From: Gallionella sp.
Lineage (GTDB): Bacteria > Pseudomonadota > Gammaproteobacteria > Burkholderiales > Gallionellaceae
NCBI GenBank assembly: GCA_028714895.1
Contig: JAQTLM010000007.1
Location: 41,685 to 105,684 of the forward strand
DNA length: 64,000 nt
Direction of reading: 5' to 3'
Below the pieces are notes generated by a model. That model saw only the letters and a list, made by a program, of their open reading frames with translations. It ran no database searches and had not been told where the DNA came from. Shown here one piece after another: positions 22,731 through 54,790 of this stretch; within the stretch, counting starts at the first letter, position 1; every line of letters starts with the position of its first letter. The position numbers were made by a program, and so were the translations under genes.

Positions 22731-23456
22731 ATGAAGAAAAGTCTGTTGGTATTGAGCCTGATTTCCTTGTATGGCAGCGCATTCGCGGCGGATTTCACCG
22801 ACACCGCGCGCGTGGTTTCCAGTACCCCGATCTACGAACGTGTTACGGAACCGAAGCGCGAGTGCTGGACGGAAACCGTGCAGGTCGCGCCTAAAGAACG
22901 CTCCATGGGCGGCGCGGTAGTCGGCGGTGTCGCCGGCGGCCTGCTGGGTAGCCAGGTTGGCGGGGGCAAAGGCAGTACGGCTGCGACCGGCGCCGGTGCG
23001 GTGGCCGGTGCGGTGATCGGCGACCGTGTGTCCAACCCGGACAGCAACCGTTCCGCAACCGGCGCGGTAGTCGGCGGTGTGGCTGGCGCGTTGCTGGGCA
23101 GCCAGATTGGCGGCGGCACGGGTAACAAGGCCGCAACTGCAGCGGGTGGTATTGCCGGTGTGATGATTGGTGATCGTGTCGCCAACCCGGATCAGCCGCG
23201 TACCGAACAAGTGGAGCGCTGCCGCCAAGTTGATTCCAGCCGCGAAGTGATCAAGGGCTACAACGTGACCTACCGCTACAACGGACAGGACATCACCACC
23301 ACTCTGCCGTACCAACCCGGCTCGACTATCCGTGTGGGTGTGAGCGTCATCGATGATCAACAAGGCCAACGTTATGAAGAGCCGCAAAAACGGCGTAATG
23401 AAGGGCTACAAGGTCGACGTTATGAAGGTCGTAGTGATAGACCTAATTATCAGTAA
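22731..23456 (+). CDS. Exported glycine-zipper 2TM protein (YcfJ-like) with tandem zippers
   Basis: Signal peptide, ARVVSSTP, two GAVVGGVAG.LLGSQ.GGG.G..AAT repeats, GYNVTYRYNG. Confidence 0.85.
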   Translation: MKKSLLVLSLISLYGSAFAADFTDTARVVSSTPIYERVTEPKRECWTETVQVAPKERSMGGAVVGGVAGGLLGSQVGGGKGSTAATGAGAVAGAVIGDRVSNPDSNRSATGAVVGGVAGALLGSQIGGGTGNKAATAAGGIAGVMIGDRVANPDQPRTEQVERCRQVDSSREVIKGYNVTYRYNGQDITTTLPYQPGSTIRVGVSVIDDQQGQRYEEPQKRRNEGLQGRRYEGRSDRPNYQ

Positions 23457-23496: not shown

Positions 23497-23584
23497 CGCT
23501 ATGTGGTAGCTGTTGCACTTTCCCCATCCCGGCAGACTAATGAATCTGCTGGGACGGGGAAAGTGCAACAGCTACCACATAGCG
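23497..23584. repeat. 88-bp palindrome (40-bp arms, 2 mismatches, 8-nt loop)
   Basis: CGCTATGTGGTAGCTGTTGCACTTTCCCCATCCCGGCAGA / TCTGCTGGGACGGGGAAAGTGCAACAGCTACCACATAGCG. Confidence 0.92.
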
Positions 23585-23603
23585 CTTTGTTCGCTAGCGG
23601 GAA

Positions 23604-23629
23604 TTAGCCGAATCTGCCGGTAATGTAGT
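23604..23629 (-). repeat. Orphan synonymous copy of the pstB 3' end (YITGRFG-stop)
   Basis: 22/26 identity to 23680-23705; all 4 differences are at third codon positions. Confidence 0.85.
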
Positions 23630-23679
23630 GGCTACGGCATAACCTGAAGGTAAGTCTGCGCCGCTACATAACAGGCAGG

Positions 23680-24468
23680 TTAACCAAATCTGCCTGTTAT
23701 GTAGTCCTCGGTTTCCTTGCGTTTCGGGTTGGTGAACACCGTGCTGGTGTCGCCGAACTCGATCAAATCCCCCAGATACATATAGGCGGTGAAATCGGAG
23801 ACGCGCGCGGCTTGCTGCATGTTGTGCGTGACGATGACGATGGTGAAGTCTTCCTTCAGTTCGTCGATCAGTTTTTCGATGTGCGCGGTCGAGATCGGGT
23901 CGAGCGCCGAGGTCGGTTCATCCAGCAGCAAAACTTGCGGCTTGACGGCGATGGCGCGCGCGATGCACAGGCGCTGCTGCTGCCCGCCGGACAGGCTGGT
24001 GCCGCTTTGTTTGAGCTTGTCCTTGGCTTCAGTCCACAGCGCGGCTTTGCGCAATGCCCATTCGACACGCTCATCCATGTCATTCTTGCTGAGACTTTCA
24101 TACAGTTTTACGCCAAACGCGATATTGTCGTAAATCGACATCGGGAACGGAGTGGGCTTCTGGAACACCATGCCAATCTTGGCGCGCAGCATGTTCAGGT
24201 CCTGCTTTTTGTCGAGGATATTTTCGCCGTCCAGCAGGATTTCCCCGGCGGCTTTCTGCTTGGGGTAGAGCTGATACATGCGGTTGAAGGTACGCAACAG
24301 TGTGGATTTGCCGCAACCGGACGGGCCGATGAAGGCGGTCACCATTTTTTCGGCGATGCTCAGGTTGATGTCCTTGAGCGCGCGGTAGTCCCCGTAATAA
24401 AAGTTGAGATCCCTGACAATTATCTTTGGGACGGTTATTTTTGGATTGGCGATGTTTTCGGCAGTCAT
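23680..24468 (-). CDS. pstB: Phosphate ABC transporter ATP-binding protein
   Basis: [51 protein letters not shown]. Confidence 0.97.
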
Positions 24469-31384: not shown

Positions 31385-31452
31385 GCGGGGTTACTCATTA
31401 GGTGGTTTCTTGGGCATTGCCTTATTTATAGAGCCGGCCATTAAATAGTTTT

Positions 31453-31555
31453 GTAGGCTGGCGGTGAGGCACGAACCCCAGCCGCTTCGACAGGCTCAGG
31501 ACAGGCATGTTCGAGGTCACCAAACGCTGGGGTTCGTGCCTCTCCGCCAGCCTAC
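31453..31555. repeat. GTAG REP doublet (30-bp arms, 1 mismatch) with an embedded CTTCGACAGGCTCAG repeat
   Basis: GTAGGCTGGCGGTGAGGCACGAACCCCAGC ... GCTGGGGTTCGTGCCTCTCCGCCAGCCTAC. Confidence 0.85.
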
Positions 31556-31721: not shown

Positions 31722-32009
31722 ATGGTTATGGCTGGCCAATTGAAAAAGTCAGGGGCGCAAAAAACAGTCGGCTTCGAGTCGGCCATGACCGAGCTCGAGC
31801 AGATTGTCGCCGACATGGAGGCGGGCAAGTTGCCGCTGGAAGATTCGCTGGCAGCCTATAAACGCGGCGCGGAATTGTTGTCGTTCTGCCGCTCCAAACT
31901 GGAAGATGCGCAGCAGCAGGTGAGCGTGCTGGAGAACGGCGTGCTGAAGGATTTTTCCGCCACCGGCGAAGCAGGTCAGGCCGCTTCGACAGGCTCAGGG
32001 CAGGGCTGA
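31722..32009 (+). CDS. xseB: Exodeoxyribonuclease VII small subunit
   Basis: FESAMTELEQIV..ME.G.LPLEDSL..YKRG..L...C..KL..AQQQV; canonical xseB-ispA-dxs order. Confidence 0.93.
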   Translation: MVMAGQLKKSGAQKTVGFESAMTELEQIVADMEAGKLPLEDSLAAYKRGAELLSFCRSKLEDAQQQVSVLENGVLKDFSATGEAGQAASTGSGQG

Positions 32010-37038: not shown

Positions 37039-38385
37039 ATGATTAAAAAACTCTTCAAACGCGTATTCCGTAAATCAGCAAAAGTCAGATCATCAGGGAA
37101 TGCGCAGGTGATCCCGTTCGAATTGCATGGCGTGCCGCGCGAGCAGATCAGTTACGGCGCGCAGAAAGTCACCGACGGCCTGCAGGCGGCCGGCTATCAG
37201 GCCTATGTGGTCGGCGGTGCAGTGCGCGATCTGCTGCTGAAGCGCATCCCCAAGGATTTCGATGTGGCGACCGATGCCACACCGGAGGAGGTGCGCCGCG
37301 TGTTCCGCCGTTCGCGCATCATCGGACGGCGCTTCCGGCTGGTGCATGTGATGTTCGGCGAAGAGGTGGTCGAAGTTTCCACCTTCCGGAGCATGATCGA
37401 AGCCGAAGATGCGCAGACCGACGAGCATGGCCGCCTGCTGCGCGACAACCAGTTCGGCGACCGGGAGCAGGATGCGGCGCGGCGCGATTTCACCGCCAAC
37501 GCACTGTTCTATGATCCGTCCACCCAGGAGATTTTCGACTATCACAATGGCTATGCCGATACCCGCAAACACCTGCTGCGCATGATCGGCGACCCGCTGG
37601 TACGCTACCGCGAAGATCCGGTGCGGATGGTGCGTGCGGTACGTTTGTCTGCCAAGCTGGGCATGCAGATCGATGCCGCAACTGCCGCGCCGATCGCCGG
37701 GATGAAAAATTTGCTCGACAACGTGCCGCAGTCGCGTTTGCTCGATGAAGTGTTGAAGATGCTGTTGTCCGGGCATTCGGTGGAATGCATCCAGCAATTG
37801 CGCAAGATGAACTTGCATCATGGCCTGCTGCCGTTGCTGGATGTGATTTTAGAACAACCGATGGGCGAGAAATTCGTCATGCTGGCGCTGCGCAATACCG
37901 ATGAACGTCTCAGTCAGGACAAGACGGTTTCGCCCGCATTCCTGTTTGCCGCATTGCTCTGGCATGAGGTGCTGGCGGCATGGAATTTGCGGGTGCAGCA
38001 GGGCGAACGCCCGGTGGGCGCAATGCACGAGGCGATGGATGAGGTGCTGGCTAGGCAGAAGGAGCAGCTTGCCATTCCGCATCGCCATGATGCGGTGATG
38101 AAAGAAATCTGGCTGCTGCAGCAACGCTTCGAGCAACGCGCCGGACAACGCACGTTCCGTTTGCTCGAGCAGCCGCGCTTCCGCGCCGGGTTCGACTTTT
38201 TGTTGCTGCGCTGCGCCAGCGGCGAAGTGGATCAAGAGCTCGGGTTGTGGTGGGATGAATTTCAGGATGCCAGTGCCGAACGGCAGGCGGAAATGCTGCA
38301 GCCGGAACAGGCCGGAGATAAAAAACGCCGCCGCAAGCCGCGCAAAAAACCGCAAGCCGCCGCAGCGGAAGTGACGGCAGCATAA
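37039..38385 (+). CDS. pcnB: Poly(A) polymerase I
   Basis: VGGAVRDLL, PKDFDVAT, IIGRRFRLVHV, DAARRDFTANAL, EDPVRM, RFRAGFDFLLLR; basic C-terminal tail. Confidence 0.95.
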   Translation: MIKKLFKRVFRKSAKVRSSGNAQVIPFELHGVPREQISYGAQKVTDGLQAAGYQAYVVGGAVRDLLLKRIPKDFDVATDATPEEVRRVFRRSRIIGRRFRLVHVMFGEEVVEVSTFRSMIEAEDAQTDEHGRLLRDNQFGDREQDAARRDFTANALFYDPSTQEIFDYHNGYADTRKHLLRMIGDPLVRYREDPVRMVRAVRLSAKLGMQIDAATAAPIAGMKNLLDNVPQSRLLDEVLKMLLSGHSVECIQQLRKMNLHHGLLPLLDVILEQPMGEKFVMLALRNTDERLSQDKTVSPAFLFAALLWHEVLAAWNLRVQQGERPVGAMHEAMDEVLARQKEQLAIPHRHDAVMKEIWLLQQRFEQRAGQRTFRLLEQPRFRAGFDFLLLRCASGEVDQELGLWWDEFQDASAERQAEMLQPEQAGDKKRRRKPRKKPQAAAAEVTAA

Positions 38386-52801: not shown

Positions 52802-53392
52802 ATGGCTGCTGATTTGAGTACGTTGCGTACCAGTCTGACGGGTTTGCTTGGCGACAAGCTGACCGGTATGGAGGAAAGACTGGGCGAGTTGACCGTGGTG
52901 GTCAAGGCTGCCGGGATGCTGGGCGCGCTGACGCGCCTGCGCGATGCGGCAGGCTTCGAGCAGATGATCGACCTGTGCGGCGTGGATTACTCCGCTTACG
53001 GCGATGGTGCGTGGGAAGGCCGGCGCTTCGCGATCGTCTATCACCTGTTGTCGGTGGCGCATAACACGCGCCTGCGGGTGCGTATCTTTGCCGAGGAAGA
53101 TGATTTTCCGTTGCTGGAATCCGTGACGGACATCTGGCCTTGCGCCAACTGGTATGAGCGCGAGGCCTTCGACCTGTATGGCATCGTGTTCACCGGGCAT
53201 CCCGACTTGCGCCGCATCCTGACTGACTATGGCTTTGTCGGTAATCCGTTCCGCAAGGATTTCCCGTTGTCCGGCCATGTGGAAATGCGCTACGACCCGG
53301 AACAGCAGCGCGTGGTGTATCAGTCGGTGTCGATCGAGCCGCGCGAAGTGACGCCGCGCATCATACGTGAAGAAAACTACGGTCGTAATTGA
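52802..53392 (+). CDS. nuoC: NADH-quinone oxidoreductase subunit C
   Basis: [39 protein letters not shown]. Confidence 0.96.
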
Positions 53393-53402
53393 GGACGCGG
53401 TC

Positions 53403-53528
53403 ATGGCTGAGATAAAAAACTACACAATGAATTTTAGTTACGGCCGCCCTGCGGGCTTAACTTGTTTGCACAAGTTAGCCTTCACTGAAATGCATGGTGA
53501 ACGCACGTTGAACCTGGTGTCGAGATAG
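53403..53528 (+). other. 41-codon ORF beginning with a duplicate of the nuoD N-terminus and running through a hairpin-rich insert
   Basis: [41 protein letters not shown]. First 33 nt are 31/33 identical to 53537-53569 with synonymous differences. Own GAGG RBS. Confidence 0.8.
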
Positions 53529-53536
53529 GCGGAGTT

Positions 53537-54790
53537 ATGGCAGAGATAAAAAACTACACCATGAATTTTGGGCCGCAGCATCCTTCCGCGCACGGGGTGT
53601 TGCGCTTGGTGCTGGAGCTGGACGGCGAGGTCATCGAGCGTGCCGATCCGCATATCGGGTTGTTGCACCGCGGCACCGAGAAGCTGGTCGAGCACAAGAC
53701 CTATCTGCAATCCCTGCCCTACATGGATCGGCTCGATTATGTTTCGATGCTGAGCAACGAGCATGCCTATGTGATGGCGGTCGAGAAGCTGGCGGGCATC
53801 GAGGTGCCGTTGCGCGCGCAGTACATCCGTGTGATGTATGACGAAATTACCCGTATCCTCAATCACCTGCTATGGCTGGGTGCGCACGGGCTGGATATTG
53901 GCGCGATGACCGTGTTCCTGTATTGCTTCCGCGAACGCGAGGATTTGTTCGACGCTTATGAAGCAGTATCCGGTGCGCGCATGCACGCGGCCTATTACCG
54001 TCCGGGCGGCGTGTATCGCGATCTGCCGGACTCCATGCCGCAATACCAGCCATCGAAAATCCACAATGCCGCAGCGGTAAAAAAGCTCAACGAAAACCGC
54101 CAAGGCTCGCTGCTCGATTTTCTGGAAGATTTCACCAATCGCTTCCCTGCCTATGTGGATGAATATGAAACGCTGCTGACCGACAACCGCATCTGGAAGC
54201 AGCGCACTGTCGGCATCGGCGTAGTCACGCCGGAGCGCGCATTGGCGCTGGGCTTTACCGGCCCGATGCTGCGTGGCTCAGGGGTGGAATGGGATTTACG
54301 CAAGAAGCAACCTTATGAAGTCTATGACCGCATCGAGTTCGATATTCCGGTCGGCAAGACCGGCGACTCCTATGACCGTTATCTGGTACGCGTCGAGGAG
54401 ATGCGCCAGGCCAACCGCATCATCAAGCAATGCATCGCCTGGCTGCGTAGCAACCCCGGTCCGGTGATGACCGATAATTTCAAGTTTGCGCCGCCCAAGC
54501 GCGAAGCGATGAAGCAGAACATGGAGGAATTGATCCATCACTTCAAGCTGTTCAGCGAAGGGATGCATGTGCCGGTCGGCGAGGCCTATGCGGCGGTGGA
54601 ACATCCCAAGGGCGAGTTCGGCATTTACCTGATTTCCGACGGTGCGAACAAACCTTATCGCATGAAGATACGTGCGCCCGGTTTTGCACACATGGCCGGG
54701 CTGGATGAAATGGTGCGCGGTCACATGATTGCCGACGTGGTGACCATTCTCGGCACACAGGACATAGTTTTTGGTGAGGTAGACCGCTGA
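53537..54790 (+). CDS. nuoD: NADH-quinone oxidoreductase subunit D
   Basis: [39 protein letters not shown]. Confidence 0.97.

Follow-up and report, generated by a model that had tools for sequence, protein, structure and literature searches.

The nuoD gene of Gallionella sp. begins twice, and the question raised by this locus is what the sequence lodged between the two starts may be. In the stretch analysed (64,000 nucleotides of contig JAQTLM010000007.1, assembly GCA_028714895.1; hereafter the window), a 36-nt direct repeat with 33 matching positions and a spacing of 134 nt occupies 53400-53435 (GTCATGGCTGAGATAAAAAACTACACAATGAATTTT) and 53534-53569 (GTTATGGCAGAGATAAAAAACTACACCATGAATTTT), both of its coding differences (GCT/GCA and ACA/ACC) being synonymous. 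A k-mer self-scan of the window found no other repeat of this kind near nuoD, and a BLAST search of the insert against the window returned no copies other than the repeat itself. Each copy is preceded by its own ribosome binding site: the Shine-Dalgarno sequence GAGGA of copy 1 overlaps the end of nuoC, and AGGCGGAG stands before the true start. A first-pass annotation had described these features correctly, as well as a hairpin-rich insert, whose TAACTTGT/ACAAGTTA and GCCC/GGGC stems are indeed present, and a decoy open reading frame (ORF) of 41 aa with a TAG 8 nt before the true nuoD ATG, which the ORF list confirms. It offered two explanations, namely the scar of a micro-element able to regenerate a gene terminus, or an upstream ORF (uORF) or attenuator tuning nuoD-N relative to nuoA-C. 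The comparative analysis presented here indicates that the insert probably belongs to a family of mobile elements that are miniature (about 60-150 nt), non-coding and site-specific, and which insert after a T near the ends of housekeeping genes.

A scan with NuoD as query, using one genome per species, provided 80 betaproteobacterial loci, the best being 94% identical (Gallionella). In most of them nuoC and nuoD either overlap (ATGGCTGA) or lie 0-10 nt apart, and the layout of the window (an initial nuoD start followed by some 100 nt of insert and by the real start) was found in seven of the 80 (L001, L006, L009, L017, L031, L041 and L044). These belong to Gallionella, Sideroxydans, one Methylophilaceae and two unclassified metagenome-assembled genomes, and their inserts are homologous; L002, L003 and L004, which are equally close relatives, have an empty site. 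The insert is accordingly not peculiar to the genome of the window. Moreover, Logan contigs from four unrelated metagenomes contain the occupied and the empty nuoD site together, the element having 5-45% of the flank depth; in the empty-site contigs, position 53435 is joined straight to GGSCCGCAGCA. The coexistence of both states points to ongoing gain or loss among co-occurring strains.

Decay of the nuoD element appears to have left remnants at two other loci: L011 (2926-3000), in which the spacer-like CATTGTTCGTTGTGAACGCGCGCTGCAAC is kept and the core is gone, and L032 (2944-3000), which keeps a partial first nuoD start. Other betaproteobacterial nuoC-nuoD gaps (L062, L014, L024, L042, L052, L054, L055, L064 and L069) hold small unrelated inserts of 60-140 nt, such as the palindrome GTCATTCCAGCGAAAGCTGGAATCC in L062 and the GTGAAACG repeats in L014; the nuoC-nuoD junction is a general hotspot.

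Read on the strand in which the core folds, the order is the same at every site: a first copy of the gene terminus (c1) ending in T, the core, a segment here called 'anti', a spacer, a second copy of the terminus (c2), again ending in T, and the gene body. The core, of about 51 nt, has the consensus RGY TNC GRC, stem H1, stem H2, GYC TNC RCY. The 'anti' segment begins with G, usually as GAAA, and is reverse-complementary to the final 11-18 nt of c2. The junction T stands opposite the 'anti' G in 41 of 42 cores (pair 4-71, U.G), regardless of gene direction, and in the window the first G of 'anti' likewise forms a T.G wobble with the junction T. The junctions seen (insertion following the last letter of TTTT, TTGT, TAGT or CTTT) have only this final T and its opposite G as their constant part. 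Since c2 adjoins the gene body at all sites, supplying either the start (nuoD, murG, ruvC) or the end (ftsW, proB, glmS, pstB) of the gene, 5'-end elements lie sense and 3'-end elements antisense to it. The coordinates of both copies in the window are collected in Table 1.

Table 1. Features of the nuoD and pstB copies of the element in the window, with neighbouring genes.
Feature	Position	Strand	Basis or remark
nuoC	52802..53392	+	TGA stop 53390-53392; ORF list; Pfam Complex1_30kDa E 5.8e-44
c1, presumed displaced host nuoD codons 1-11, now uORF start	53403..53435	+	ends in T at left junction
uORF, 41 aa, read through the element	53403..53528	+	TAG 53526-53528, 8 nt before nuoD ATG (53537)
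inserted unit, 134 nt (core, anti, spacer and c2)	53436..53569	+	sharp conservation boundaries at 53436 and 53569, pairwise comparisons
three-way-junction core	53436..53486	+	AGT TAC GGC C-H1-T-H2-GCC TTC ACT
core H1, GCCC-TGC-GGGC	53446-53456	+	stem present
core H2, TAACTTGT-TTGC-ACAAGTTA	53458-53477 (arms 53458-53465 / 53470-53477)	+	found by repeat search
anti, GAAATGCATGGTG	53487..53499	+	inverted copy of CACCATGAATTTT (c2 end), by repeat search; alifold pairing with compensatory changes
spacer with uORF stop and Shine-Dalgarno AGGCGGAG of true nuoD start	53500..53536	+	sequence
c2, putatively element-borne nuoD codons 1-11, copy in use	53537..53569	+	ends in T at right junction
nuoD	53537..54790	+	ORF list; Pfam Complex1_49kDa E 9e-118
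pstB insert including both termini	23604-23705	element on +, gene on minus strand	sequence; Pfam ABC_tran for pstB
pstB c1, presumed displaced host pstB 3' end	23604..23629	+	minus strand reads HYITGRFG-stop
pstB reduced core GGCTACGGCATAACCTGAAGGTAAGTCTGCGCC, without H1, short H2	23630..23662	+	R1 match 23626-23666
pstB anti, GCTACATAACAGGCAG	23663..23678	+	complementary to c2 end CTGCCTGTTATGTAGT
pstB c2, putatively element-borne functional 3' end	23680..23705	+	minus strand reads (D)YITGRFG-stop; adjoins gene body at 23706

The fold of the core is well conserved. RNAalifold gives a three-way junction closed by a helix between the c1 end and a downstream segment, which also pairs with c2, and both pairings carry compensatory changes. 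Within the core, 95.5% of the alignment cells are paired, 10 pairs show double changes and 64 cells are doubly changed; none of 500 shuffles reached as high a value, and slid controls were 22-57% paired. The double changes include AGT/ACT, GGC/GCC, GGT/ACC and AGC/GCT in the closing helix, and GGC/GCC vs GAC/GTC and GCCC/GGGC vs GTCC/GGAC. The core subtype goes with the target, being AGT/ACT at nuoD and GGC/GCC at ftsW. Folded as DNA, the c1 end, core and 'anti' of the window nuoD copy form a cloverleaf (z = -4.2), and the anti:c2 stem also forms. A covariance model of the core (R1), whose E-values are rough, scores window positions 53432-53490 at 83.3 bits, with E 3.7e-20.

Four results agree in indicating that c2 arrives with the element and that c1 is the host's own terminus. 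At the positions that discriminate between both copies, 'anti' is complementary to c2 at 31 and to c1 at 3 in nuoD, and at 150 and 24, respectively, in ftsW. Codon differences between c1 and c2 are mainly synonymous (83 against 34 non-synonymous in nuoD, 16 of the 34 coming from two decayed copies, and 187 against 47 in ftsW), and c2 of murG is recoded even across codon families (Ser AGC to TCT, Arg CGT to AGG). This pattern argues for two orthologous termini that evolved as coding sequence in separate lineages, and not for a duplication followed by neutral decay. Furthermore, contigs that share 72-88% identity in their nuoC and nuoD flanks share 94-97% in element plus c2, the identity falling within a few bases of both junctions; the spacer of the window matches that of L183 at 35 of 37 bases, the flanks being 72-80% identical. 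In the relatives c1 is host-dependent and sometimes decayed (L017, L031, L091, L161, L173). Finally, the nuoD site of L160 is occupied by a tandem of two different elements, in which each 'anti' fits the c2 of its own unit. The linkage of 'anti' to c2, the recoding, the identity contrast and the self-pairing within tandems together point to precise insertion, immediately after the T, of a unit of core, 'anti', spacer and c2 coming from another lineage. A duplication of the target by a staggered cut does not fit, and nor does recombination with long co-converted flanks; the former was rejected on account of the length of the repeat, which varies between 13 and 51 nt with the gene context, and of the recoding between copies. 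Of the two explanations offered at first, the terminus-regenerating micro-element is therefore supported by the comparative data as to its nature; what does not stand is the scar, as the insert looks like an intact member of the family, with the functional second copy apparently brought in by the element.

Metagenome contigs were then scanned with an exact pattern taken from the central hairpin only (GGRCTTAACTTGN6CAAGTYAGYC), a gene-independent sample that is nevertheless conditioned on this 22-nt core pattern. At least 120 contigs matched. Many of the matches listed are at nuoD, the biggest class is that of the ftsW-murG junction, where the element occupies the opposite strand to the genes, and the remaining contexts are proB 3', glmS 3' and ruvC 5'. 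Model R1 added three more: murG 5' (sense, without H1), the inside of nuoC in L001, and the pstB 3' end of the window. Eight target genes were found in all, about half of them with the element antisense to the transcript. In nuoC of L001 (2431-2490), a 60-nt variant element lies in frame between EGKRF and AVVYHLLS and adds 20 residues (SSDVTHETGLVSTETRKARF). The dcw locus, as in L163 (3570-3860), L090 and L178, can contain together both ftsW-3' elements (antisense) and murG-5' elements (sense, without H1, with a target ending in GGCCACATTTTT), as well as tandem repeats of each; tandem arrays are frequent and reach five 105-nt units (L143).

No unit longer than about 150 nt, integrase or cargo was seen among the at least 140 copies listed (units of 60-150 nt), so that the cargo-bearing states foreseen at the outset were not encountered. 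Searches with the core and the unit gave no match in viral contigs, plasmids or phages, and a permissive Rfam 15 scan of 53300-53700 returned only a chance snoRNA match at E 7 and no known ribozyme, riboswitch or leader. A full-text literature search found no description of such a family, the nearest being a review of MITEs (miniature transposable elements with inverted repeats) which covers the Rickettsia palindromic elements (RPEs) (PMC10969869). The family is apparently undescribed, with housekeeping gene ends of iron- and methyl-oxidising Betaproteobacteria as its range.

The likeness that had been noticed between nuoD and the 3' end of pstB holds, given the R1 match within the window (E 0.0016 with filters off) and the identical architecture; in these searches it came to light through the covariance model only. 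The match itself is marginal (22.5 bits; E 0.014 over 592 kb). Copies c1 and c2 of pstB differ by four codon changes, all synonymous, with a fifth base difference in the stop codon region; the reduced core shares GGCTACGGCATAAC with the H1-less variants L044 and L198, and the anti:c2 stem is an 18 bp hairpin (DNA fold z = -5.2). Membership of this copy in the element family thus appears supported by the combination of a weak score and a matching architecture. The third R1 match of the window (37353-37408) is ordinary pcnB coding sequence and was discarded as chance. A palindrome whose arms measure 40 nt (CGCTATGTGGTAGCTGTTGCACTTTCCCCGTCCC...) lies downstream of the pstB element, at 23500-23600, with a typical intrinsic terminator after it. 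In the ORF adjoining pstB, a 21-nt exact repeat (22910-22930 and 23060-23080, 150 nt apart) is probably an internal duplication of a PhoU-like gene.

The element is also accommodated by the reading frames of its hosts. At nuoD-type sites the uORF frame that starts in c1 has no stop within the element in any of the 28 distinct copies, against none and three open copies for the two alternative frames, and it ends between -13 and +17 nt from the true nuoD ATG, even where the spacers are unrelated. At the ftsW-murG junction, the new ftsW end leaves a decoy murG start behind it, from which the frame stays open across the antisense element in 31 of 32 cases and, in 28 of the 32, stops exactly on the NTGA overlapping the real murG start; unit lengths here are almost all 2 mod 3 (116, 101, 110, 113, 122, 140 and 146), as required for a decoy ORF that ends on the murG start. 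Elsewhere these uORFs are annotated as hypothetical proteins of 38-48 aa. A protein search with the 41-aa uORF recovered 33 small uORF clusters only and no larger protein with the peptide, which suggests that in-frame fusions in this frame are rare. To judge from these frames, the uORF is real and under selection. Ribosomes coming off nuoC would read the decoy ORF and finish on or beside the true nuoD start, and with frames open up to that start translational coupling would be preserved; the role of the uORF would be termination-reinitiation coupling in operons whose genes originally overlapped.

Such a frame is also what a cis-regulatory leader might show, that is, a uORF or attenuator with RNA structure tuning nuoD-N against nuoA-C, in which the need of the stem for a pairing partner in the nuoD 5' coding sequence would explain the duplication. 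Both the uORF, open in every copy and ending beside the true start, and the anti:c2 pairing, which would occlude nuoD codons 6-11 and covaries with them, agree with this idea. Yet it is unlikely, and as the primary identity of the insert it is largely refuted: seven further sites, at the ends of genes or within them, carry the same core, which in half of these is antisense to the mRNA, the strand of the junction T.G does not depend on gene direction, presence and absence differ among close relatives and among co-occurring strains, tandem arrays contain up to five units, and the uORF peptide varies wherever the stems covary. Compared with leader peptides, therefore, an open uORF near the regulated start is found, and neither single-operon specificity nor a consistent transcript orientation. 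From the uORF or attenuator of the first-pass annotation there remains the open frame, which fits translational coupling, and not a nuo-specific regulator, since this core is also found at other genes, and in antisense orientation to the transcript.

There is also little probability that the insert is the scar or miniature derivative of an integrase-borne island, of the kind in which attP carries a replacement gene end (SXT at prfC, tRNA islands), the core being then the remnant of an att site. A replacement terminus for an interrupted conserved gene is typical of such islands, and the glmS 3' end is a classical integration hotspot. Indeed, SXT/R391 (prfC 5'), tRNA/tmRNA 3' islands and Tn7 (glmS) share with the present family the conserved housekeeping targets, the substitute terminus and the direct repeat with synonymous differences, but they measure 10-500 kb and carry an integrase or transposase plus cargo, whereas the units described here are of 60-150 nt, have no ORF of their own and use one core for many targets. 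Between the repeats of the at least 140 copies listed there is no integrase or cargo and never more than about 150 nt; unrelated targets share a single structured core, unlike integrase att sites, each of which is specific to its target; plasmids, phages and viral contigs gave no match; and the arrays are tandem and uniform.

Independent local duplications at each gene end by template switching (direct-inverted-direct), with no mobile entity involved, are very improbable. The order c1-anti-c2 is a classical footprint of replication template switching and the pstB copy has very little core, but this process would leave without account the 51-nt homologous covarying core common to loci and hosts, the recoding of c2 with respect to c1 at synonymous sites, including six-fold Ser/Arg switches, and the near-identical units in divergent hosts.

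An assembly artefact or chimera, for which it can be said that the shared core makes short-read chimeric joins (as in L109, nuoABC to ruvC) and that unitigs branch at 53490, has practically no probability left and is already refuted for the window locus, misassembly being excluded by the same architecture in seven independent GTDB genomes and dozens of metagenome contigs, and by contigs and unitigs from unrelated samples that span the whole unit with 0-3 differences (Logan contigs X5, 53427-53583, with 0 differences, and X1, 53370-53628, with 3). In L109 (1-1767), nuoA-B-C and a decoy nuoD start are joined to the ruvC 5' end via the shared core; a retargeting event from nuoD to ruvC was considered and set aside, as the nuoABC genes upstream make an assembly chimera through the core most likely. 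This contig still shows a ruvC-targeted copy with a nuoD-type core.

If the insert belongs to a mobile family, as is here preferred, the element would reach new hosts horizontally and insert there precisely after the T of the same conserved site; horizontal transfer is in this case deduced from identity contrasts and not from trees. With less confidence, the active form may be a folded single strand of fixed polarity, in which 'anti' would act as a splint or guide, aligning the end of the target, or the end of its own c2, with the element 5' end across the T.G wobble. In the predicted fold of the linear unit, the 3' end (c2...T) would lie beside the 5' end (RGY...) on the splint RCY-G-anti, and the host target would pair less perfectly. 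A trans-acting enzyme, most plausibly an HUH or rolling-circle single-strand nuclease-ligase as in IS200/IS605 and IS91, would then nick and join: the site would be cut, the strand displaced until the site recurs, and a circle released and later re-inserted. Release and re-insertion of this kind would explain why 'anti' has to match c2, for the release of the unit, and tolerates 2-4 differences in the host target (L160, L185). This single-strand splint and nick-and-join mechanism, argued by analogy, is a tentative proposal, to which we would give clearly less than an even chance. Of a similar, tentative standing is the more complete picture of a guide-directed homing element, made up of a scaffold of about 50 nt and a splint of 11-18 nt, with single-strand insertion after a T.G-marked position, a recoded spare terminus and a translatable sequence; its enzyme would be one not yet linked to mobile DNA and possibly host-encoded, and the element would be re-targetable in principle.

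Several points weigh against the mobile-family explanation. Neither an enzyme nor a product of excision or a circle was observed, nor any copy that was autonomous or carried cargo, and each target has its own core subtype, which means that jumps to new sites must be rare. Spread could have occurred instead by recombination after DNA uptake, and the conservation of element plus c2 could derive partly from selection and not from recent transfer. The sample of at least 120 contigs rests on an exact 22-nt core pattern, and the pstB copy is only a marginal match to R1. As regards the chemistry, the ftsW- and murG-type copies of the dcw locus face opposite ways some 120 nt apart, against a strict IS608-like lagging-strand rule (both window copies are on the G-rich + strand, GC skew +0.05, two copies being too few to matter), and the tolerance of 2-4 mismatches between 'anti' and host target in L160 and L185 weakens a strict guide model.

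Among known systems, the RPEs, which are translated intragenic repeats (PMC10969869), the intragenic ERIC sequences and the Correia elements are likewise small, structured, non-coding, intragenic, translatable and tolerated as an extra peptide. The RPEs of Alphaproteobacteria differ, as far as a comparison by description goes, in having no reported replacement terminus or inverted target copy and in not being confined to a few conserved sites. Classical MITEs do not correspond, as the units have no terminal inverted repeats, and the flanking repeats, of 26-51 nt, are gene-derived and differ synonymously instead of being duplications of 2-10 bp.

As for the chemistry, IS608 and ISDra2 recognise their cleavage site through base pairing to a resettable internal guide. 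Folding of one strand into a hairpin is shared with the IS200/IS605 family, which transposes as a single strand by means of Y1 HUH enzymes, and with its miniature derivatives, the PATEs; insertion 3' of a short T-ending target with no true duplication and a resettable internal guide pairing may be shared as well. The new element differs from IS200/IS605 in its single conserved three-way junction in place of two subterminal hairpins (only the left part is conserved, the right-end hairpin being target-derived), in a guide of 11-18 nt vs 4-5 nt, in a right end that is a copy of the target, and in the occurrence of both orientations at adjacent sites; no TnpA was found in the loci and contigs covered. 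Similarly, group I introns (P1 and internal guide) and group II introns (EBS-IBS) have an internal segment that pairs with the bases immediately 5' of the point of insertion, the final U/T of the target forming a wobble with G, as in 41 of 42 cores here. The U.G wobble closing a P1-like 5' junction is thus present, and a catalytic core (P3-P9) or splicing is not, the unit being of 134 nt, lacking Rfam support and leaving a gene that needs a spare start; unlike an intron, the element is not spliced out, the gene being rescued by the spare terminus and the new start.

Integron attC sites and the CTX-phage attP also fold in a strand-specific manner into a duplex mimic of the target and form tandem arrays, and H2 resembles the R''/R' pair (GCTTAAC...GTTAGCC). 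The junction, however, lies about 20 nt outside H2 and not in GTT, the contexts are coding targets in nuo, dcw, pst, proB and glmS, and no integrase or attI context was found at the element sites. Three further candidates were rejected: target-primed reverse transcription, as from the sequence geometry neither unit strand has a 3' end complementary to the nicked target; a TnpB/Cas12-like guide RNA, as there is no conserved motif on the side of a target- or protospacer-adjacent motif (TAM/PAM; right flanks GGGCC, CATAATC, CCGGCG and others); and a hammerhead ribozyme, in which GAAA is present and CUGANGA absent. By analogy, the closest systems would be, in behaviour, the RPEs and the large gene-regenerating elements and, in chemistry, the guide pairing of IS200/IS605 and the U.G-closed P1 of group I introns. 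The element is best placed among the small, non-autonomous mobile elements, and there is a substantial chance that its insertion chemistry is new.

If this is true, selfish elements barely longer than a tRNA would reside inside essential conserved genes (complex I, the cell-division cluster, phosphate uptake, glmS), persisting because they carry a recoded substitute for the gene end and stay translatable. To our knowledge, the replacement-terminus strategy is otherwise found only in large integrase-borne islands and in engineered cleave-and-rescue gene drives. The family would also account for many hypothetical proteins of 38-48 aa and for long gaps in tightly coupled operons, would offer natural examples of translational coupling rebuilt after an insertion, and would serve as a warning to annotators and assemblers about chimeric joins via the shared core. 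Moreover, the scaffold, splint and wobble-marked junction would point to an insertion chemistry directed by base pairing, useful if programmable.

Repetitive extragenic palindromic (REP) sequences and REPINs, which are RAYT-associated and abundant and have a 5' GTAG ahead of a GC-rich palindrome, are a different case, since the core starts with RGYTNC, CTAC precedes the stems and the copies are intragenic at a few fixed sites. A REPIN-like perfect GTAG palindrome, beginning GTAGGCTGGCGG, does exist elsewhere in the window (31441-31545). Its loop, CAGCCGCTTCGACAGGCTCAGGACAGGC, is identical at about 27 of 29 positions to the xseB 3' end (31973-32003; protein tail GQAASTGSGQG-stop), 499 nt downstream, and xseB may be another gene end that shares sequence with a repeat element.

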